Shown here: piece after piece, positions 8,976-20,324 of the stretch
How positions within the stretch are numbered: the first letter of the stretch is position 1
Layout of the letters: each line of letters begins with the position of its first letter
Source: an uncultured delta proteobacterium
Lineage (GTDB): Bacteria > Desulfobacterota > Desulfobacteria > Desulfobacterales > B30-G6
DNA: 64,000 nt
Direction of reading: 5' to 3'
Assembly: GCA_963823335.1 (NCBI GenBank)
Contig: CAWGLD010000002.1
Location: 32,001 to 96,000 of the forward strand
Position numbers and translations under genes: made by a program
Notes under the pieces: model-generated
Database searches by the model: none
The model's input: the letters and a program-made list of their open reading frames with translations, nothing else
Told to the model about the DNA's origin: nothing

Positions 8976-9006
8976 TAGTCTTCAGTTTCTATTGTTGTGT
9001 GACTCT

Positions 9007-10443
9007 ATGGAAATAAAATCTCCACAAAATGAGCTGAATAGACTTAGGCGGGCACAAAAAGCGTTTCAGGCACAAAACAGGTTGTTTGAGAACCTGATCG
9101 AGATGGTGCGCTCCTCTTCAAAACAGGAAATGCTGAAGACCACCATGCAAAAAACCCTGGACGTTGCCTGCGACCTGTCCGGAGCGGAAAAGGGCAGTCT
9201 GTTTTTGCTCAATGAAGATGGTGTCGTCACCGATAGTATCCTTACCCGTGGAGAAGTGCCTTCGGAGCAACGGTTAAGCCTGATCGGGAGTGTACTGGAT
9301 CGAGGTTTGGCCGGTTGGGTCAGAAAGCATCTCGAAATTGGACTTATCAAGAATTCAGAGACAGACGATCGATGGCTGTCTCTCCCGGATGAACCTTATC
9401 TCATTCGTTCCGCGTTAGCCGTACCGATTCTCAGGCACAAATGGCTCTTTGGTATTTTAACGCTTATGCATTCGGCGCCCGGACATTTTACCCAGGATTC
9501 CATCGATATGATGCAACTCACCGCCGATCAGATGGCCCTGGCCATTGAAAATACTCAACTGTACATGAAGCTCGACGCCTCCTATCGTTCCTTGGGCAAA
9601 GCCAAACAATCCATTGAAACGTATTCCAAGGCACTTGACCATGAGCTGGAACAAGGACGGAAAATCCAAAAGGACTTTCTCCCTCATCAGATACCTCAGG
9701 TACCCAATTGCGAAATTAGCACGTATTTTCATCCCGCGTTACAATTGTCCGGTGATTTTTATGATGTATTTATTCTTCCCGACCAGCGTCTGGGACTGGT
9801 CATTGCAGATGTCAGTGGTAAAGGTGTTGGCTCGGCATTGTTCATGGCTCTGCTCAGAAGTTTGATCAGGGTCTTTTCAGGCTACGCCCGTTTGCAGTAT
9901 TCTCTCGAAAGCCGAGACCGGGAGAACCCTGTATTGCTGAGTGGCCAGACAGACCTAACATATGCCCATGAATCAAACGCGCTGAATGCGGTATCGCTTA
10001 CCAGCGAATACATCGCTCATGAACACGGTGACGAAGGCATGTTTGCCACCTTGTTTTTCGGTATTATCAATCCTTTGACAGGATCGCTCTCCTATGTTAA
10101 CGGCGGTCATGAACCCCTGATCATACTGAGTACAGATGGGATAAAAAACAGACTGAAACCCACAGGGCCGGCGGTGGGTCTGATGCCGGGAGCACGTTAT
10201 AAAATAGAAAAGGTTCAGCTCGAATCTGGAGATATTCTGTTCGGATACACCGATGGTGTAACAGAAGCCAGATCACCACAGGATAAACTGTACACACGCA
10301 GACGTTTTGAAGAAGCAGTCGTGAGATATAGTGTTCCGACAGCCGCAGAATGTATAGAAAAAGTTACATCAAATCTTTTTGAATTTATTCAAAACGCACC
10401 CCAGGCTGATGATATTACCATGTTGGCAATCCGTTATCGGTAG
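9007..10443 (+). CDS. GAF + SpoIIE (RsbU-like PP2C) phosphatase
   Basis: GAF region, SGDFYD, IADVSGKG, NGGH, YTDGVTEA, DDIT. Confidence 0.9.
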   Translation: MEIKSPQNELNRLRRAQKAFQAQNRLFENLIEMVRSSSKQEMLKTTMQKTLDVACDLSGAEKGSLFLLNEDGVVTDSILTRGEVPSEQRLSLIGSVLDRGLAGWVRKHLEIGLIKNSETDDRWLSLPDEPYLIRSALAVPILRHKWLFGILTLMHSAPGHFTQDSIDMMQLTADQMALAIENTQLYMKLDASYRSLGKAKQSIETYSKALDHELEQGRKIQKDFLPHQIPQVPNCEISTYFHPALQLSGDFYDVFILPDQRLGLVIADVSGKGVGSALFMALLRSLIRVFSGYARLQYSLESRDRENPVLLSGQTDLTYAHESNALNAVSLTSEYIAHEHGDEGMFATLFFGIINPLTGSLSYVNGGHEPLIILSTDGIKNRLKPTGPAVGLMPGARYKIEKVQLESGDILFGYTDGVTEARSPQDKLYTRRRFEEAVVRYSVPTAAECIEKVTSNLFEFIQNAPQADDITMLAIRYR

Positions 10444-10456
10444 AGGAGGTTAACCC

Positions 10457-10780
10457 ATGAAACACGCACGATCAATCATTTGTTTCGCTATCCTGATTTT
10501 TGCTTTGCTTCATCCCCCAACAGTCGTGTTTGGTGATACAATTTTTATTGATTTGGATGGCACTGTCATTGATAAAGAACAGTACCAACAAAATGCTTCG
10601 GATAGAGAAAAAACGTTAAGCACAAAATTAAGAGATGGCTATAATATGGAATCCAATGTCTGGAAAGATCCTATCAAGTTAAGAAAAACAAGAATCGAAC
10701 AGTGGAGAATAATGAGAACACATTATAGCCCTGATTCGTTACCGTCAAAAATAGAGAACGCATCAGCAAGAAATAAGTAG
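10457..10780 (+). CDS. hypothetical secreted protein
   Basis: GGAGG RBS, N-terminal signal-peptide-like segment. Confidence 0.6.
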   Translation: MKHARSIICFAILIFALLHPPTVVFGDTIFIDLDGTVIDKEQYQQNASDREKTLSTKLRDGYNMESNVWKDPIKLRKTRIEQWRIMRTHYSPDSLPSKIENASARNK

Positions 10781-11533: not shown

Positions 11534-11902
11534 ATGAATAAACAGGAGTGGGTGGTATATCTGGCTCAGTGTTCTGACGGGTCTCTGTATTGTGGCACAA
11601 CAAATAACCTGAAAAACCGGCTGGCAGCGCATAATGCAGGTAGCGGTGCCAAATATACACGATCCCGAAGACCGGTTACCTTGGTTGGCGTCAGCGCCAC
11701 AATGACAAAAAGCGATGCCCTCAAACTGGAGCATCGCGTCAAGCGGGTTCCTGCCGGAAAGAAAGAAAAAGAACTGGCAAAAGGGGAGGGCGCCAAAGTT
11801 AGCAATGCGAATACAGAGCTGACGGCCATCAAGAAGGAGCTCAAAATACTTTCAAAAAAAGTTCAGAAACTGATCGATGCAATGGGAAAGCAATCTAGTT
11901 AG
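11534..11902 (+). CDS. GIY-YIG nuclease family protein (UPF0213-like)
   Basis: VYLAQCSDGSLYCGTT..RLAAHN..GAKYTRSRRPV. Confidence 0.85.
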   Translation: MNKQEWVVYLAQCSDGSLYCGTTNNLKNRLAAHNAGSGAKYTRSRRPVTLVGVSATMTKSDALKLEHRVKRVPAGKKEKELAKGEGAKVSNANTELTAIKKELKILSKKVQKLIDAMGKQSS

Positions 11903-12232
11903 CCATCATTTTCAATCTCCCAAAGTGAAATTAGACGATAGGCGGTACCTAAAAGAGTGTTCTCCAACAGTTGACTAGGTTAAGACTGCCACACTATGAT
12001 GCCTATGTTATCATCTTGACATACAATTGTCATCTCATCTATACTCCGTTAAAAAGTAATATGTTATCTATTCTATTGACTATTTTATGGTTAAGTAACT
12101 TTTCCTGGTACAAGATACGTAAGTATAAAATCAGATCATCGAACCATTACACCACATTTAAGCATAGTATTTCCGGCTAAAACAAACGTCACTTGTTGGA
12201 ACAGGTGAATCCTGTTTTTTGGTTTCGGAACA

Positions 12233-15232
12233 ATGGACAAAGAAATCACTTATAAAGATTTAGGCTGGAACTTTCATTCCTTTCTCCTGGGTGGGATGCT
12301 CAAACAGCCCTTGTCTGTCGTCCTCATTTTAATTGTTATCACAATCGCCTTTGGCTGGCGCATTCCTCGAATATCCTTTCGGACATCCGTTTATGATATG
12401 GTGGTGGACAGTTTGCCCGAGACGGTCCGTTATAATATCTTCAAGGAAGTGTTCGGTTCCGATGAGATCATTCGCGTGGTCATCAAAACGGATGGTATAT
12501 TCACGCCCCGGAACTACAGTGTTGTGGAAGAGATGTCCGGTGCTATCGAAAAAATTCCCGGCGTGAGACGGGTTATCAGCCTGCCCGTGATCAAGAAAGG
12601 GATTGAGCTGTCTGGAAAATGGGATCTGCAGAAGTTCAAGGAGGTGATTCAACCGGTTATACTGTTTAAAAAGAATCTAATCTCCGATGATCAGAAAACA
12701 ACGATACTGACTGTCGTTCTGGCACTTGATGCAGATCAGGAACGCGTCATCCATGATATTCAAGCTCTGATCACTAACACGGCGAAGCCAATTACTGCAT
12801 ACCAGATCGGTATGCCTCTCGTATCACAGGCCATGGCCCGGTTTTCAGAGGCTGATTTCAAACGGTTGCCGCCCATAACTCTTTTACTGGTTGCCGTGAT
12901 GGTATGGGGCCTTTTTCGCAATGTTTCATTCACCATCGTAGTTTTGGGAACGGTTGTGTCAGCTTCGATCTGGACTATCGGTCTGATGGGGTGGTTGCAG
13001 ATCCCCTTGTCCATGATGACCATGATCGTACCGGTATTTTTAATCGCGGTGGGGACGGCTTACTGCATACATATCATTTCGACCTATTTGGTCTGCAGTC
13101 AACACGCGAGTTCGCGACGCCATGCAGTGCTGGAGACCTACCAGAGAATTTTTCTGCCGACGATTCTAACAATCGTAACCACCGCCATCGGCCTGACATC
13201 TCTGCTCGTCAACCGCATGCTTGCCATACATGAATTTGCGCTGCTTTCTTGTTTTGGTTTGTTCAGTTTTCTGATCATCCTGCTTACGGCATTTCCGGCG
13301 GCGCTTATGCTATTGCCTAAACCAAAATTGCGGAGTACTCAGCGGACAAACACTCGTGATGGTTTTGATCAACTCCTCGATTTCATTGTACGGCTCAACT
13401 TGAAGCACCGCAAGACCATTCTGATTTCCATCGGCGTTCTGGTACTGCTGGGCATTGCCGGTATGTTTTCCATACGTGTTGAAACCAATCCCATCGGTTT
13501 TTTCAAAGCCCACACATCCATCAGCAGACACTTTCACGATATTTACCAGGACCTTTCCGGGAGTTTTCCCATCAATGTCATCATGGACGGTGGCGAGGAT
13601 GACTTTTTTCAAGACTCGAAAAACATAGCCCTTATTCAGAAGCTGCAGCACTACCTGGAAACACTCCCGGGGGTGGATAAAACCGTATCCATTGCAGATT
13701 ATATGCAGATGGTCCACTATGCCATGAATCAATACGATCCCGATTTCTACATGATTCCCGAGGAAGGCTTTGAAATTCGCATGCTGGTCAACAACTATAA
13801 AACCATGCTGGGCGACGACATGCTGAAAAGCGTTATGAACCCCACCTTTTCCAAAACCAATATACTTCTTTTAACGCACATATCCAGTTCCAGTGATTTT
13901 TTAACGATCAAAGATAAGATTCTGAACCATGTCAAAAACGAGTTCCCGGAAACGCTGGAATGGGATGTGACCGGTTTCGGAATGGTGGCGGCGGCAAGTA
14001 GTCATCTCTTGACATGGGGCCAGGCAAAGAGTTTCTCGTTGACGTTGGTTTTCATTTTTCTGATCATGCTGATACTCTTCCTTTCGACCAGGGTCGGGTT
14101 TATTGCCGTCCTGCCGAATGCATTTCCGATCATCATAACCTTCGGCATAATGGGCTGGTTCGGTATCCACCTCTCCATGGTGACAAGCCTGATCGCGAGT
14201 ATCGCAATTGGGCTGGCCGTTGACGATACCATCCACTATTTGTACCGGTATAACAGGGAATTTAAAAAAGATCTGGATAAAGATCGGTCGCTAAGAGATT
14301 CCATTCTGCATGTCGGGCGGCCGGTTCTTTTTACGACCATCATTATTGGTATAAGCTTTGCGGTTCTACTTTTTTCCAGTTTCGAGCCCACGTCGATTTT
14401 CGGGCTCTTGATGGTCATAACCATGCTGGCAGCCGTGATCGGGGATTTGCTGATTCTACCGGCCCTGATGCTCAATGTGGAACTCGTCACGGCCTGGGAC
14501 CTTCTGAAACTGATGCCAACTTTGAGCGGGATTTCAAACTCCGCCGCGCATGAACTGAACCAGCCGCTGAATGTTATCAAGATGGGCAGCGACTATTTAA
14601 AAATGATAGAGCAGAAAGGCACCCTGGTTCAATCGGAACATTTAGCCCGGGTGGTAAATGAAATTGGCACGCAGGTAGACCGGGCATCGGAGATTATTCG
14701 TCGGTTGATGACGTTCAGCCAGAAACCGGGATTTCGCAAGGAACCCACTGATGTCAACAAAGCGGTCCATGATGCACTGGTGCTTGTGGAAAATCAGTTA
14801 AAAATTGAGGATATCGATATAAATCTTGATTTGGACCATTCGTTGCCCTATATTTATGCTCATCCTGCAAAAATCAGCGAAGTTGTTTTCAATCTCCTGG
14901 TCAATGCCTGTGAGGCCATAACCGAAAATAAATCTATACAGAAAAATATTCGGAACGGCTCACGAATCACCATCCGAACATCCATGATCGGGAAACAGGT
15001 TAAAATTTGGGTGAGTGACAATGGAATTGGTATCCCCGCCCACCTGATTAACCGAATCACAGAGCCTTTCTTTACGACAAAAGCAACGGGAACAGGTAAA
15101 GGTTTGGGATTGAGTATCAGCAAAGAAATTGTCAAGAGTTATGGTGGTCGTCTCGAGGCAAAAAGTGAGCAAGGCCGACAAACTGATTTTATTGTGACGT
15201 TTCCGGTATATTTAGAGCCAGTCAACCGATGA
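12233..15232 (+). CDS. MMPL/RND-family membrane protein fused to C-terminal HisKA-HATPase histidine kinase
   Basis: Two MMPL repeats (IAIGLAVDDTIH), then H-box AHELNQPL, N-box NLLVNA, G1 DNGIGI, F-box PFFTTK, G2 GKGLGL. Confidence 0.85.
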   Translation: MDKEITYKDLGWNFHSFLLGGMLKQPLSVVLILIVITIAFGWRIPRISFRTSVYDMVVDSLPETVRYNIFKEVFGSDEIIRVVIKTDGIFTPRNYSVVEEMSGAIEKIPGVRRVISLPVIKKGIELSGKWDLQKFKEVIQPVILFKKNLISDDQKTTILTVVLALDADQERVIHDIQALITNTAKPITAYQIGMPLVSQAMARFSEADFKRLPPITLLLVAVMVWGLFRNVSFTIVVLGTVVSASIWTIGLMGWLQIPLSMMTMIVPVFLIAVGTAYCIHIISTYLVCSQHASSRRHAVLETYQRIFLPTILTIVTTAIGLTSLLVNRMLAIHEFALLSCFGLFSFLIILLTAFPAALMLLPKPKLRSTQRTNTRDGFDQLLDFIVRLNLKHRKTILISIGVLVLLGIAGMFSIRVETNPIGFFKAHTSISRHFHDIYQDLSGSFPINVIMDGGEDDFFQDSKNIALIQKLQHYLETLPGVDKTVSIADYMQMVHYAMNQYDPDFYMIPEEGFEIRMLVNNYKTMLGDDMLKSVMNPTFSKTNILLLTHISSSSDFLTIKDKILNHVKNEFPETLEWDVTGFGMVAAASSHLLTWGQAKSFSLTLVFIFLIMLILFLSTRVGFIAVLPNAFPIIITFGIMGWFGIHLSMVTSLIASIAIGLAVDDTIHYLYRYNREFKKDLDKDRSLRDSILHVGRPVLFTTIIIGISFAVLLFSSFEPTSIFGLLMVITMLAAVIGDLLILPALMLNVELVTAWDLLKLMPTLSGISNSAAHELNQPLNVIKMGSDYLKMIEQKGTLVQSEHLARVVNEIGTQVDRASEIIRRLMTFSQKPGFRKEPTDVNKAVHDALVLVENQLKIEDIDINLDLDHSLPYIYAHPAKISEVVFNLLVNACEAITENKSIQKNIRNGSRITIRTSMIGKQVKIWVSDNGIGIPAHLINRITEPFFTTKATGTGKGLGLSISKEIVKSYGGRLEAKSEQGRQTDFIVTFPVYLEPVNR

Positions 15233-15268
15233 ACGGGTCAACGGGTTCAAGAAGGATGAAAACTGCAG

Positions 15269-15643
15269 ATGCTTAAAGCGCTTGTCATAGACGACGAACA
15301 ACCGACCTTATTCATGTTCAATCTTTTTCTAAATGCTTATGGTTACGAAGTGATAACCGCGGAGAATGCTGCCACCGGTATTGAACTGTTCAAAAAAGAG
15401 CGGCCATCCATCGTGTTTACAGACATTAAAATGCCGGGAATGGATGGCCTGGATGTGCTTAAAATACTCAAATCCATCGATCCCGCGGTTCATGTGATCG
15501 TTATGACCGGCCATGGGGATCAGGATTTGATGAAGCAGGCTATGGAATTAAATGCAACAGCATTCATCAACAAACCCATCGGGCGCGAAATACTGGAACA
15601 GGTGCTCAAGAAGGTGGGGGATAACCCATTTCAAAAAAAATGA
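15269..15643 (+). CDS. single-domain response regulator
   Basis: VIDDE, TDIKMPGMDG, MTGHG, FINKP. Confidence 0.9.
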   Translation: MLKALVIDDEQPTLFMFNLFLNAYGYEVITAENAATGIELFKKERPSIVFTDIKMPGMDGLDVLKILKSIDPAVHVIVMTGHGDQDLMKQAMELNATAFINKPIGREILEQVLKKVGDNPFQKK

Positions 15644-15701
15644 ACCGCATTTACACCTGGCTGAAGTTGCTGGCGAATGTGATTTGGGAAGGATATAAGA
15701 A

Positions 15702-16640
15702 ATGGAAAAGACGCTTTTCTGGTTGCAATGCGGGGGATGCGGTGGTGATACTTGGTCGATGTTCAACATCGAATCACCGAACCTCCCCGACTTGTTCAAA
15801 TCATTGAAGATAAAAATTCTGTGGCATCCCACGTTATCCGTTAAAAATGGGACCCATCAGAAACAATTGCTTGCAGACGTTCTGTCCGGTCGCCAGCAGC
15901 TCGATTTCTTATGCATCGAGGGGGCCATCATTCGTGGCCCGCGTGGTACCGGGTTGTATGATCTGGCCTATGGAAAACCCAAAAAGGATCTTGTTGCCGC
16001 GCTGGCAAGACAAGCTCAGTATGTGATTGCTGTCGGGACATGTGCCAGCTTTGGTGGATTCGGGGCCGATGGTGAAATCGAAGCGGCCGGCATGCAGTTC
16101 CTAAAGTGGGAAAAAGGTGGCTTTGTCGGCGAATCGTTTCAATCGAAAAGCGGCCTGCCCGTAATCAATCTGCCGGGCTGTCCGTGCCATTACGACATCA
16201 TCGGGGGAACCCTTTCCCTGTTGGTCTCTGAAGCACCGTTGAATCTGACAGAACACCAATCGCCCACGGAATGGTACAACATCATGGTTCATCAGGGCTG
16301 CACGCGTAACGAGTATCATGAGTATAGAGTCGAGGACAAACGATTCGGCGAGAAAGGTTGCATGTTTTTTCACCTGGGGTGTCATGGTCCTCTGGCTCAC
16401 GGTCCATGCAATAAATTGCTCTGGCACCGGCGCTCATCCAAGACACGTGTCGGTGTTCCCTGTTTTGGCTGCACCCGACCCGACTTCCCTCAGCCCTATC
16501 CATTTTTCGAAACCCGCAATATAGAAGGAATTCCGCTGGAGCTCCCTGAAGGCATTAATCGTGCACACTACATGGCGTATAAGGGAATGGCCGCAGCTGC
16601 TGCCCCCGGAAGACTGACCACAAGAAAAACAGGCATATAG
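15702..16640 (+). CDS. [NiFe] hydrogenase small subunit, sensory (HupU/HoxB-like)
   Basis: WLQCGGCGGD, GTCASFGG, NLPGCP, HQGCTR, GCHGP, PCFGC; no twin-arginine leader. Confidence 0.85.
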   Translation: MEKTLFWLQCGGCGGDTWSMFNIESPNLPDLFKSLKIKILWHPTLSVKNGTHQKQLLADVLSGRQQLDFLCIEGAIIRGPRGTGLYDLAYGKPKKDLVAALARQAQYVIAVGTCASFGGFGADGEIEAAGMQFLKWEKGGFVGESFQSKSGLPVINLPGCPCHYDIIGGTLSLLVSEAPLNLTEHQSPTEWYNIMVHQGCTRNEYHEYRVEDKRFGEKGCMFFHLGCHGPLAHGPCNKLLWHRRSSKTRVGVPCFGCTRPDFPQPYPFFETRNIEGIPLELPEGINRAHYMAYKGMAAAAAPGRLTTRKTGI

Positions 16641-16651
16641 GGTGATGCAGA

Positions 16652-18160
16652 ATGACGCGTAAAATTGAAGTATTTCCGCTGAACCGTGTTGAGGGCGATC
16701 TGGAAATCTCGATTGAACTGGAAGACGATGTCGTGATCGATGCACGTAGTGCCGGAACCATGTACCGTGGATTCGAGAATTTCATGGTGGGTCGCTCACT
16801 TCTGGATGGATTGGTTATAACACCCCGAATCTGCGGGATTTGCAGCACGTCCCACTTATATGCCGCAGCCAGCGCCCTGGATATGATTTATCATGTAGAT
16901 GTACCTCGTCATGCCTCCTGGGTTAGAGGCATTACCGCGATGACGGAAAAGCTTCAGAACGACATCCGACATGCCTTCTTGTTGTTCATGCCCGATTTCA
17001 CCGACGCTACGTACCAGAAAGAGCCACGGTATGCCGACATGGTAAAACGATATGCGCCACTCGAAGGATCTTCTGTGCGCCAGGCCATTGACGAAACTCG
17101 CAAGATATTGGAAATCATCGCTATCCTTGGTGGACAATGGCCACACTCCTCTTTTATGGTACCGGGGGGTGTCGTGTCCATGCCCAGCAACACTGAATTG
17201 AATCGTTGTGCCTATTTGCTGAATAATTTCAAACAATGGTACGAACGCCAGGTGCTGGGATGCAGTCTTGAAAGATGGCATGCCATTCAGACAAGAGCCG
17301 ATTTGATTTCCTGGCTCAAGGAAAGTAAAACACACCTTGAGAGCGACCTCGGGTATTACATCCGCTTTGCAACCAGGACAGGACTGCATCGAATCGGTAA
17401 AGGACACGGCAACTTCATCAGCTTCGGTATGCCGTGCCCAATACCGGCGTCTGAAGGACAGATGGAGGGCGGGTCAAATCCCTTAGCAGCCGGGGGGTTT
17501 TATACTGACAATCGTCTGTTCCCTCTGGATCAGGAAAATATTACCGAGGATGTTTCGCATAGTTGGTTTGCCGGCGGCGGCACAGGTCAACACCCCTATC
17601 ACGGGCAGAGTTCACCTTATGCCACGGGCAGTGAGGATCTGAGATATTCCTGGGCCAAGGCCCCGCGGTACAAAGGACTGCCGGCTGAAACCGGACCATT
17701 GGCTGAAATGGTCATTTCTTCAAACGCCCTGTTTGAAGACTTTATAAGACTCGATGGCCCGAGCGCATTTCTCAGAGAACTGGCAAGACTGGTCCGGGCG
17801 GCAACCATAATTCCGGCTGTTGAACGTTGTATTGAAGACGCCATGTCGACACCAGGCCAATTCTACAGGGAGCACGGGGATATAATAAATCAGCAGGGTC
17901 ACGGCTTGATTGAGGCGCCCCGGGGAGCCCTGGGTCACTGGGTCAAAATCAAAGAAAATAAAATCTCATCCTACCAGATTATTACCCCTACTGCCTGGAA
18001 CGCCTCACCCCGTGACGCAGATAACGTCCGAGGACCCTGTGAAGAGGCGCTAATCGGGACCAGGGTGAAGAACCATGAAAACCCGATGGAGATTCATCAC
18101 ATTATCCGGTCGTTTGATCCATGTCTGGTGTGTACCGTGCATGCGATTGACTTGAGGTGA
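16652..18160 (+). CDS. [NiFe] hydrogenase large subunit, sensory (HupV/HoxC-like, group 2b/2c)
   Basis: NRVEGD, L1 PRICGICS, L2 FDPCLVCTVH with only 5 residues after His. Confidence 0.9.
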   Translation: MTRKIEVFPLNRVEGDLEISIELEDDVVIDARSAGTMYRGFENFMVGRSLLDGLVITPRICGICSTSHLYAAASALDMIYHVDVPRHASWVRGITAMTEKLQNDIRHAFLLFMPDFTDATYQKEPRYADMVKRYAPLEGSSVRQAIDETRKILEIIAILGGQWPHSSFMVPGGVVSMPSNTELNRCAYLLNNFKQWYERQVLGCSLERWHAIQTRADLISWLKESKTHLESDLGYYIRFATRTGLHRIGKGHGNFISFGMPCPIPASEGQMEGGSNPLAAGGFYTDNRLFPLDQENITEDVSHSWFAGGGTGQHPYHGQSSPYATGSEDLRYSWAKAPRYKGLPAETGPLAEMVISSNALFEDFIRLDGPSAFLRELARLVRAATIIPAVERCIEDAMSTPGQFYREHGDIINQQGHGLIEAPRGALGHWVKIKENKISSYQIITPTAWNASPRDADNVRGPCEEALIGTRVKNHENPMEIHHIIRSFDPCLVCTVHAIDLR

Positions 18161-18164
18161 CCCT

Positions 18165-20279
18165 ATGAGCACTCTGTTGGCATTGTCAACGAGATCTTTA
18201 GATACAGGACACCAGTCCTATCAAGATCTGCAGGAGGAGAACAAGCTATTGCGGCAGGAGATTCGCACAGCTCGAAAAGCTGCAGAAATTACTGCCGACC
18301 TGGTCGTCAAACAATTTGAGGAAACGGAAAGGGTCTTGCAACGGTTTCAGGTCGCCAATGCTCAGCGCAAAACCGTGCTTGACTCGGCAAGTCAAATATC
18401 CATCATCGCCACAAATCCTCAGGGAATTATCACCGTTTTCAACAAAGGCGCCGAGAATCTGCTGGGTTATAAGGCTGAGGAAGTCATCGACCGGCAGAGT
18501 CCCTTGATATTTCATCTGGAATCAGAGCTTGAAAAACGCAGTCAACTGGTCAGCATGGAATTTGAACATACGGTAGAAAACGTGGATTTGTTTTTTGCCT
18601 ATGCAGCCGAAAAACCGCCGGAATATTCCGAGTGGACCTACATACATAAAACCGGAAAACAATTCCCTGTCAGAATGTCCATAAACGCTTTACGCGGCCC
18701 CTACGGTTCGGTTGAGGGTTTACTGTGCATTGCGCTTGATATCAGTGAAAAAAAACGGTCGGAAAAAGCGCTCATGGAAAGTGAGCGAAAGTATCGCCTG
18801 CTTATCCGGAATTTACCGAATGTTGTCTACAAAGGCTATCTAAATGGGGATATTGATTTTTTTGATGATAAAATTGAGATTTTGACCGGCTATAGTCGAC
18901 AAGAATTTTCATCACGCAAAGTGAACTGGTTCGACTTTGTCCACAAAGAAGATCTTGAAGGTGCCAAGGAAATATTCAAGCAAGCACTCAGAACAGATCA
19001 AATGTTTATCCGGGAATACCGGGTTAAATCTAAAAACGGAAAAATCGTCTGGGTGGAAGAAGGCGGTCAGATCATTTACGGGGAGGACGGAGAAGTCGAG
19101 TTTGTCACAGGGGCCTTCCTAGACATTACGAAGCGCAAGCTGGCCGAAAGGGCTTTACACGAATCGGAAAAGAACTATCGATCGCTTTTCGACAGCGGAC
19201 CGAACCCCATTTTCGTACTGGACATGCATCGCTTCAAAATCATGGATGCCAATCCCAGCGCCGAGGAAACCTACGGTTACAGCAAGGAGGAGCTGGTAGG
19301 ACGACCGTTTTCAGATCTCGGGCCATTCGGGAATGAAATGTTTGAGGAAAAAATGAAGATCGGCCTGTCCAACGCAGGCGATCGTCCGAGTGCGTGTGTG
19401 ATCAGCCTGAAGGATCAACACTTTAAAAAAGGCCATAAACCGTTTTATGTGCGGGTCACGGCATGCCCGACCCGCTATCACCAACGTCAGGCTATCATTG
19501 TGGCGGTCACGGATATCACAGAACTGTTGGAAAAGGATGCTCAGCTGGCTCAGGCCAGCAAAATGACCACACTCGGAGTAATGTCTGCAGGCATAGCCCA
19601 CGAATTAAACCAGCCGTTGAATGTCATCAAAATGGGCAGTGAGTACCTGCAAATGAGTATGGAGAAGAATCAGTACCTGCAGCCGAAACTGCTCGATGTC
19701 GCTATGGAAGTCAGCGCGCAGGTAGATCGGGCATCTGCGATTATCAATCTGCTGCGTGAGTTCGGCCGTAAACCTGATTTCAAAAAAGAACATGTCAATA
19801 TCAATGCTGTAATCACGGCAGTTCTCGGAATTATCGGCCGGCCGCTCGAGCTTAACAATATTGACATCATACTCGATCTTGACGAACCCATTCCGCCGAT
19901 TCTGGCCCAGGCTAACCGTCTGGAACAGGTATTCTTCAATTTAATGACAAATGCCGGCGATGCCATCCATCAAAAACGCGAAGCATCAGGTGAAACACTC
20001 CCGGAACAGATCAGGATATCTACGTACCGTAGTCATGATCATGTTGTCGTGAGTGTATCTGATACGGGCATCGGCATTCCTGAAGAGATCAAGGAAAAAA
20101 TATTTGAACCTTTTTTTACGACCAAAGAGGTTGGAAAGGGAATGGGGTTGGGTCTTTCAATCATTTACGGTATTGTAAAAGAATACGGTGGCGAGATCGA
20201 GAGCCATAGCAGCCCGAATCAGGGAACCTCCTTTAAATACAGCTTTCCCATCGCTGACATGCAGGCGACTCTTGAGTAA
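18165..20279 (+). CDS. cytoplasmic multi-PAS histidine kinase
   Basis: Three PAS/PAC-like blocks, [32 protein letters not shown]. Confidence 0.9.
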
Positions 20280-20324
20280 TTGACTGCCCGCAGAAAAGGG
20301 GGTCTAAAGACCCCTGCTGTGATA

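Follow-up and report, generated by a model that had tools for sequence, protein, structure and literature searches.

The described group 2b [NiFe] hydrogenase systems are HoxBC-HoxJ-HoxA of Cupriavidus necator and HupUV-HupT-HupR of Rhodobacter capsulatus. Kinase-linked sensory hydrogenases are already known, as are kinases fused to transporters and eukaryotic receptors with the RND fold, such as SCAP, an RND-derived receptor with a sterol-sensing domain. Several kinases can also feed one stand-alone receiver, as KinA-E do with Spo0F in Bacillus and DivJ and PleC with DivK in Caulobacter. In CbrA and CrbS, an SLC5 solute symporter domain is fused to a histidine kinase (PMC13022988, PMC7096432, PMC5715377), and CbrA has been termed a rare 'transceptor' (PMC13022988). 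In the HydDB table, group 2b hydrogenases are entered as 'histidine kinase-linked, H2 sensing' and group 2c hydrogenases as 'diguanylate cyclase-linked (putative)', with their role given as undetermined (PMC5037454). Here we describe a stretch of 64,000 nucleotides (the window; positions 32001-96000 of contig C2 in the 11-contig genome of an uncultured Desulfobacterales bacterium, completeness 93.9%, contamination 4.6%) with an operon-like unit of five genes encoding an MMPL/RND transporter fold fused to a histidine kinase (the MMPL-kinase), a lone receiver, the two subunits of a [NiFe] hydrogenase and a soluble PAS kinase. We are inclined to believe that the two kinases and the one receiver combine the sensing of H2 in the cytoplasm with a cue that the RND 'transceptor' kinase reads at the membrane, and the circuit probably controls hydrogen uptake genes.

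An earlier note, made from the DNA sequence alone, had claimed five co-oriented, closely spaced genes at this place, and the open reading frames and their Pfam domains agree with it. All five lie on the plus strand at window positions 12233-20279, separated in order by 36, 58, 11 and 4 nucleotides, and form one operon-like unit. Gene 1 (P0001, 12233..15232, 999 amino acids) encodes the MMPL/RND (HAE3-like) transporter fold with HisKA-HATPase, as judged by Pfam, a structural model and alignment. It is followed by a stand-alone receiver of 124 amino acids without an output domain (gene 2, P0002, 15269..15643; Pfam Response_reg only), the hydrogenase small subunit of 312 amino acids (gene 3, P0003, 15702..16640; Oxidored_q6 and NiFe_hyd_SSU_C), the large subunit of 502 amino acids (gene 4, P0004, 16652..18160; NiFeSe_Hases, E = 7e-81) and a soluble kinase of 704 amino acids (gene 5, P0005, 18165..20279; three PAS domains, HisKA and HATPase_c). 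Genes 1, 3, 4 and 5 have no match above the cut-offs in NCBIfam, and the named relatives of the operon's proteins come from Desulfobacterales genomes assembled from metagenomes. Contigs from RNA libraries bridge three of the four gene junctions, those between gene 1 and the receiver (X13, 15063-15611), between the receiver and the small subunit (X10, 15323-15797) and between the large subunit and the kinase (X10, 17875-18355), which is a weak hint of expression only.

The fusion in gene 1 is genuine and widely conserved, because its relatives share the architecture and independent contigs cross the junction. Among the 120 best database relatives, 119 carry both MMPL (PF03176) and HATPase_c (PF02518) in proteins of about 960-1036 amino acids, the sole exception being a partial sequence of 627 amino acids. 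The interval 14480-14560, where the earlier note had placed a possible chimeric join, is crossed by DNA contigs from two runs of different studies (X5, 13892-14877, with one mismatch; X3, 13861-14604) and by contigs of two RNA-library runs (X10, 14310-14885; X13, 14296-14748). Together with the 119 relatives, this contig-level support rules out an assembly chimera as the origin of the fusion.

Pfam recognises MMPL in two stretches of P0001 (E = 2e-38) as well as HisKA and HATPase_c, and adds a Sterol-sensing match (E = 9e-7). The RND/MMPL part spans residues 1 to about 760 (12233..14512, plus strand; Pfam, Foldseek and alignment), and the DHp (HisKA) and catalytic HATPase_c domains follow at 14513..15232 (plus strand; Pfam). 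In the AlphaFold model (predicted local distance difference test, pLDDT, 78.9; predicted template modelling score, pTM, 0.66), 12 membrane helices and two periplasmic domains are seen, with a long helix 12 leading through a low-confidence linker to the DHp and catalytic domains. This linker (residues 751-774, pLDDT below 50) is the only long one of low confidence and matches the junction of the earlier note; the junction itself, from the helix 12 end VELVTAWDLLKLMP to the H-box, lies at 14483..14554 on the plus strand (model, alignment and contigs). Across an alignment of 47 sequences, the AWD at the end of helix 12 (A754, W755, D756) is invariant, and so are the kinase boxes H773, N891, D929/G931/G933, F946 and G957-L960, which make up the complete HisKA-type set of H, N, G1, F and G2 boxes; the codon of the phospho-accepting H773 is at 14549-14551. 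Foldseek places the membrane part closest to MmpL5/MmpL4 (E = 5e-25, TM score 0.78 on the target), with further matches to MmpL3, HpnN, NPC1/NCR1 and Dispatched. Sequence matches to solved RND proteins are marginal (E = 5e-6 or weaker), and P0001 falls below the curated cut-offs of both TIGR00921 HAE3 (220 against 352 bits) and TIGR00833 MMPL (124 against 875 bits). For the kinase part, the closest solved relative by sequence is ZraS (9jfj, E = 9e-24).

P0001 resembles CbrA/CrbS in that a full secondary-transporter fold and HisKA-HATPase are found in one polypeptide. Unlike them, it is an RND/MMPL protein with two large periplasmic domains rather than an SLC5 protein, Pfam finds no STAC domain in it, its linker between the last helix and the H-box is short at about 25 residues, and a second kinase and a lone receiver accompany it. 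Its fold, the Asp-Asp of helix 10 and the Sterol-sensing match are shared with the RND/MMPL transporters MmpL3/4/5 and HpnN and with Patched, NPC1 and Dispatched, from all of which it differs by the covalently attached bacterial kinase.

The earlier note had contrasted the motif AVGTAYCIH of the first MMPL repeat, which lacks an acid, with LAVDDTIH of the second. Both motifs are present, on helix 4, which has a Tyr in place, and on helix 10, and the contrast is family-wide: the pair is conserved in 18 MMPL-kinase relatives and in 11 relatives of a sister type, MMPL-cNMP-GGDEF, described below. The Asp-Asp of helix 10 is kept in 29 of 30 alignment rows; helix 4 can be read in 29 of the 30, the remaining row being truncated. 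The helix 4 acid is likewise missing from one of two ordinary MMPL paralogues encoded in this genome, and its loss is therefore no argument for a transport-dead sensor; on this sequence comparison, an acid-less helix 4 is not diagnostic of lost transport. The conserved Asp-Asp and Tyr suggest that proton coupling is kept in the MMPL-kinase.

How far the five genes belong together can be judged from their relatives. In an evenly drawn sample of 151 genomes of the order, 18 MMPL-kinase genes occur in 17 genomes, and 12 of the 18 have an orthologue of P0004 (at least 49% identity) within about 4 kb downstream on the same strand; in one more (G053), the two are split by contig ends. A second set comprises 80 MMPL-kinase loci from species-representative genomes, overlapping the order sample, with neighbours counted within 10 kb; 47 of them are well flanked, having at least 5 kb on both sides. 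A second kinase of the P0005 type is found at 54 of the 80 loci (36 of the 47 well-flanked ones), a lone receiver at 56 (38), a group 2c hydrogenase at 39 (26), a periplasmic hydrogenase of the twin-arginine translocation (Tat) type at 30 (19) and any hydrogenase at 55 (35). The P0002-like lone receivers at these loci are 49-87% identical, and there is only one receiver gene per module. The usual order begins with a periplasmic hydrogenase (Tat small subunit, large subunit and HycI protease), the MMPL-kinase and, optionally, the receiver, and continues with the 2c small and large subunits, the PAS kinase, again optionally the receiver, and hypF/D/E. By these counts, the constant core of the module is kinase, receiver and kinase, and the hydrogenase appears as an optional plug-in (26/47). 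The co-occurrence with hydrogenases proposed in the earlier note thus stands as a recurrent link of the fusion to a cytoplasmic [NiFe] enzyme, and falls short of being constant. In one relative, a HaeII-type restriction endonuclease and a DNA methylase lie between the periplasmic hydrogenase genes and the MMPL-kinase (L032:3421-6743, plus strand).

The second kinase is the part of this core in which the input changes. P0005 begins with a segment of about 60-70 residues that is specific to hydrogenase-linked kinases and that we read, from its heptad-like sequence, as a coiled coil; its kinase boxes are invariant in an alignment of 25 PAS kinases. In all 33 second kinases whose gene comes directly after that of a 2c large subunit, the alignment to P0005 begins no later than residue 22, and these kinases share a motif starting ENxxLRx. 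Of the 24 second kinases without an adjacent hydrogenase gene, 20 show no match to P0005 before about residue 300, many of them having another N-terminal domain and a hydrophobic stretch at the start that resembles a membrane helix, and the alignments of the four exceptions start at residues 15, 71, 87 and 178. Because of this difference between the two groups, the input of the second kinase appears, from the alignments, to be swapped while the MMPL-kinase and the receiver stay.

P0001 and P0005 are closely related in their kinase parts. Their cores are 45% identical, P0005 being the best paralogue of the P0001 kinase core in the genome; they share an identical H-box of 15 residues and the motif KPxFxKE. 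Counted from the histidine, helix 1 of the DHp domain agrees between them at 17 of 20 positions, with 11 for the next best and at most 9 for the others among the 15 frames of this genome with an HExxNPL-type H-box, so that the H-box identity of this pair exceeds chance within the genome. The same helix-1 consensus is kept by both kinase families across loci. The shared H-box of the earlier note is thus present and marks the closest pair in the genome, while most of the likeness is conservation of the families as a whole rather than a feature of this locus. A third kinase in the genome (a 778-amino-acid frame, G000:C1:158083-158781, minus strand; L006) has a core 40% identical to that of P0001 and 11 of 20 H-box positions in common, and stands beside a lone receiver 43% identical to P0002; it is a possible partner for cross-talk.

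As the earlier note had claimed, the hydrogenase has no Tat leader, no long C-terminal tail and no adjacent cytochrome or protease gene. The small subunit begins with MEKTLFWLQCGGCGG, directly at the cysteines of the proximal cluster and without a twin-arginine leader, in contrast to the periplasmic hydrogenase of the same genome, which carries RRDFMK. The large subunit has the L1 motif RICGICSTSH and the L2 motif SFDPCLVCTVH and ends five residues past the histidine of DPCxxCxxH, and the Pfam scan of the operon finds neither a cytochrome nor a maturation protease among the five genes. C61, C64, C491 and C494 of P0004 are invariant among the aligned relatives, as are the Fe-S cysteines of P0003 in an alignment of 25 sequences. 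The nearest solved chains are 7uus_A for P0004 (E = 3e-121) and 7uur_D for P0003 (E = 4e-81); the chains of 7UUS, 7UTD and 7UUR are named 'Hydrogenase-2', which we take to be the group 2a Huc enzyme of Mycobacterium smegmatis.

On gene context and phylogeny we file the enzyme as probably of the 2c type with a swapped output, a class taken from its clade and neighbours. In a FastTree phylogeny of 123 large subunits, with Shimodaira-Hasegawa (SH)-like support as its only measure, all 40 MMPL-linked large subunits fall within one clade of 58 rows (SH-like support 100); since most MMPL-linked rows were found by the MMPL-kinase search, their number is biased and their placement is not. Also in the clade are five rows for which BLAST labelled a neighbouring gene as GGDEF-type. 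A receiver-GGDEF protein is confirmed by Pfam at L042 and L044 inside the clade and at L039 in another. In sister lineages of the same taxonomic order, the genes downstream encode a PAS hybrid kinase, in some cases an Hpt protein, and a receiver-GGDEF protein (Pfam), which corresponds to the 'diguanylate cyclase-linked' definition of HydDB group 2c (PMC5037454). More widely, 80 loci from many phyla encode large subunits with 41-62% identity to P0004, and at nearly all of these loci the genes for the small and then the large subunit are followed by one for a kinase or another sensor protein. The L2 motif of P0004 also fits the 2c consensus SFDxCLVCTVH given in PMC4853749. Divergent from one 2c hydrogenase operon without an MMPL-kinase, a DACND-DACNH-DAC protein of the di-adenylate cyclase type (L038:3416-4852, plus strand) is encoded beside a second PAS kinase and receiver.

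The comparison with both groups is mixed. Like HoxBC and HupUV, the enzyme is a cytoplasmic, Tat-less heterodimer whose large subunit lacks a long, cleavable C-terminal extension and which has a PAS histidine kinase next to it, and the module of the relatives lies in a hydrogenase/hyp neighbourhood. Unlike the 2b systems, it clusters with 2c-type enzymes (in a comparison without HoxC/HupV sequences), a second, membrane-embedded kinase is present, and the soluble kinase has three PAS domains and the distinctive N-terminal segment. The output differs as well, the NtrC-type DNA-binding response regulator of 2b systems (HoxA/HupR) being absent from the operon, which has only the 124-residue receiver. 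The link to HupUV/HoxBC drawn in the earlier note therefore holds for a sensory-type cytoplasmic [NiFe] enzyme, and the clustering speaks for 2c-type relatives. HydDB group 2c is matched by the L2 motif, the cytosolic location, the aquatic host of the sulfate-reducer type and the place in one clade with enzymes whose downstream genes encode a PAS hybrid kinase, Hpt and receiver-GGDEF. Unlike that group, this locus has as its output the non-hybrid PAS kinase together with the lone receiver and the MMPL-kinase; the Pfam scan finds neither GGDEF nor EAL in the operon, which thus lacks the co-transcribed diguanylate cyclase or phosphodiesterase of group 2c, and the only GGDEF-bearing relative in the genome is a degenerate domain on an MMPL paralogue.

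Building on these architectures, the intact catalytic motifs, the conservation and the synteny, we propose the following circuit. The 2c-type heterodimer would serve as an H2 receptor rather than as an energy enzyme, and its state would be read, through the hallmark N-terminal segment, by the soluble PAS kinase encoded 4 nucleotides downstream. The MMPL-kinase would be a 'transceptor' whose 12-helix RND/MMPL fold translates an event at the membrane into a kinase or a phosphatase response; the likeliest such event may be a proton-coupled RND cycle with a lipophilic ligand, or the proton-motive force itself. Because the two kinases carry a near-identical first DHp helix, we propose that both act on P0002, which would integrate 'H2 present' with 'membrane/energy state'. 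The strongest argument for a shared receiver is that a second kinase and a lone receiver accompany the MMPL-kinase even where the hydrogenase is missing. Since P0002 has no output domain, it would pass the signal on by protein contact or by further phosphotransfer. Likely targets would be the periplasmic uptake hydrogenase and the hyp maturation genes, which lie beside the module in most relatives. The arrangement is like the Spo0F and DivK circuits in having one single-domain receiver and, encoded around it, two kinases that match in their DHp helices, and unlike them in its hydrogenase and RND inputs and in lacking a Spo0B/Hpt-like gene or a terminal regulator in the operon.

Several observations weigh against this circuit. 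By Pfam, the operon has no gene for a DNA-binding regulator or Hpt protein, which makes the output a guess, and in this genome the module lies on contig C2, apart from the uptake hydrogenase and hyp cluster on C1. Contigs from RNA libraries may contain DNA, and a contig that spans two genes does not prove a single transcript. The 2c hydrogenase is missing from 21 of the 47 well-flanked loci, so the MMPL-kinase does not need H2 sensing, and five of the 47 have neither a hydrogenase nor a P0005-type second kinase. The L2 motif is not discriminating, as the aligned nearest solved group 2 chain reads SFDSCLVCTVH, and the hydrogenase keeps all its catalytic ligands, with an energy-conserving enzyme as its nearest solved relative. 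In an ungapped comparison, which is distorted by an indel in the kinase pair of the window, helix-1 identity was 0.68 within loci and 0.66 across loci (permutation p = 0.11), and whole-DHp identity 0.49 and 0.47 (p = 0.02). Locus-specific co-variation, considered as a sign of a shared partner, gave no clear signal in helix 1 at that p value, and the shared H-box may stem from common ancestry in a slowly changing kinase subfamily and not from selection for a single partner. Because same-locus identity is barely above cross-locus identity, the case for a shared receiver rests on synteny and family-wide conservation.

These points give room to other explanations. It is unlikely, yet a serious alternative, that the two kinases form an antagonistic pair, one being the main kinase (for example, the MMPL-kinase, constitutive or driven by the energised membrane) and the other, the PAS kinase with its hydrogenase, an H2-controlled phosphatase, so that the circuit would gate signals rather than sum them. 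The synteny and DHp similarity that point to a shared receiver apply equally here, the receiver is a single domain like DivK, on which DivJ and PleC act, and in known H2 sensors H2 lowers kinase output, HoxJ/HupT being switched off in an H2-dependent manner; sequences, however, cannot tell a kinase-biased from a phosphatase-biased HisKA protein, and both kinases keep all their boxes. Distinctly improbable, in our view, is that the genes are neighbours without a shared pathway, with the MMPL-kinase a self-regulating exporter-sensor of envelope lipids whose receiver is encoded elsewhere, beside an independent system of hydrogenase, PAS kinase and receiver. The 21 loci without a 2c hydrogenase, the five also lacking the second kinase and the non-significant helix-1 co-variation would fit such independence, but it leaves unaccounted for that a second kinase with another input domain and a lone receiver stay beside the MMPL-kinase where the hydrogenase is absent, that each module has a single receiver gene, and that the DHp helices of P0001 and P0005 are the closest pair in the genome. 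We give the least credence to the idea that the hydrogenase works as a group 2a-like uptake enzyme in the cytoplasm, recycling or scavenging H2, with kinases that only regulate its expression. The invariant Ni-Fe and Fe-S ligands and the similarity to energy-conserving group 2 structures (7uus/7utd, E = 3e-121 and 4e-81) are what such an enzyme would show; against this stand the lack, by Pfam, of any electron-acceptor, membrane-anchor or maturation-protease gene in the operon, the kinase or other sensor-protein gene after the large subunit at nearly all of the 80 loci from many phyla, the kinase start 4 nucleotides past the large-subunit stop, and the N-terminal segment present in 33 of 33 hydrogenase-adjacent kinases and few others. 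The integrating circuit of two kinases and one receiver remains the reading that we prefer.

The MMPL-kinase has a sister in the same genome, a paralogue of 1064 amino acids that is 54% identical over the MMPL part and ends in cyclic-nucleotide-binding and GGDEF domains (MMPL-cNMP_binding-GGDEF; L020:7352-10546, in the G000:C1:796275-798506 region, minus strand; paralogue search and Pfam). Its gene lies on contig C1, downstream of the periplasmic hydrogenase, hypC/F/D/E and apbE; the arrangement recurs in other genomes of the order, and in Syntrophobacteria-type genomes the gene directly follows the hydrogenase genes. From these gene neighbourhoods, two RND-fold signalling proteins with different outputs appear to be tied to hydrogenase loci. 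An active diguanylate cyclase on the sister was considered and rejected, as the motif position reads GRxDxxxF and none of 11 sequences has GG[DE]EF. We further suggest, tentatively and with more doubt than confidence, that the MMPL domain is primarily an RND-fold receptor rather than an exporter, a prokaryotic counterpart of Patched/SCAP whose cycle would report the proton-motive force or a membrane isoprenoid (for example, the quinone pool), and that with the MMPL-cNMP-degenerate GGDEF sister it would form an RND receptor family dedicated to adjusting hydrogen uptake to how energised the membrane is.

Some further observations concern these loci. The sister gene is followed by genes for a small cNMP-binding protein, two class III nucleotide cyclases, an RsbW-like kinase and a STAS protein. 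A gene for the flavin transferase ApbE lies immediately upstream of MMPL genes at L028 (5849-6880 and 6877-9852, overlapping by 4 nucleotides), L020 and L052-L055; the idea that the periplasmic MMPL domains are flavinylated was dropped, as no [ST]GA[ST] motif occurs in 19 MMPL-kinase or 11 MMPL-cNMP-GGDEF sequences. The large subunit of a periplasmic (Tat) hydrogenase on contig C1 (L051, about 7690-6011, minus strand) has an in-frame TGA at L051 7469-7471 in place of the second Cys of L1 (RSCGV-TGA-TYTH), and its C-terminal motif keeps the Cys. The same TGA in the same context is found at 36 loci and Cys at 12, some loci being one contig counted twice; a selB gene is present (373 bits against a cut-off of 242).

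Around the operon, the flanking genes are unrelated to it. Upstream on the plus strand lie a GAF-SpoIIE (PP2C) phosphatase gene (8992-10443), a frame of 107 amino acids without a Pfam match (10457-10780) and a gene for a small GIY-YIG nuclease-domain protein (11534-11902), the last immediately 5' of the promoter region; weakly similar GAF-SpoIIE proteins (26-34% identity) occur within 10 kb of the MMPL-kinase at L015, L150, L153 and L190. The gap of 330 nucleotides before gene 1 holds a sigma-70-like promoter candidate on the plus strand (12016..12045; TTGACA, 18 nucleotides, TATACT; 11 of 12 consensus positions), a consensus match that does not in itself imply function. A GC-rich hairpin, GGGGTCTTTAGACCCC (20299..20314), lies 20 nucleotides past the gene 5 stop, between the convergent ends of gene 5 and a downstream acyltransferase gene, and was scored as terminator-like for the minus strand.

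The earlier note knew of no characterised RND/MMPL protein acting as a kinase sensor, and in the literature passages searched we likewise found no paper on one; hydrogenase surveys of 2c neighbourhoods could bear on this novelty. A recent paper on regulatory networks in Desulfobacteraceae (PMC11887813) does not treat MMPL, RND or H2 sensing. Together with its MMPL-cNMP-GGDEF sister, the MMPL-kinase seems to make up a family of RND-fold signalling proteins not described before. For the 2c hydrogenases, entered in the table of PMC5037454 with an 'undetermined role', the locus and its relatives offer a concrete way of being wired for signalling, through a PAS kinase whose N-terminal segment is hydrogenase-specific, together with a lone receiver and a membrane kinase as an accessory. 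The carriers include cultured strains, Desulfosarcina variabilis Montpellier (L158), Desulfatibacillum alkenivorans DSM 16219 (L205) and strain NaphS2 (L176), which make the model testable. The RND-fold signalling family is common in marine sulfate reducers, which drive much of the carbon and sulfur turnover of the seabed. If its RND domain is indeed a sensor, it would provide the first instance in bacteria of the role that Patched and SCAP have in eukaryotes, and it would constitute a second, unrelated class of 'transceptor' kinase besides CbrA.

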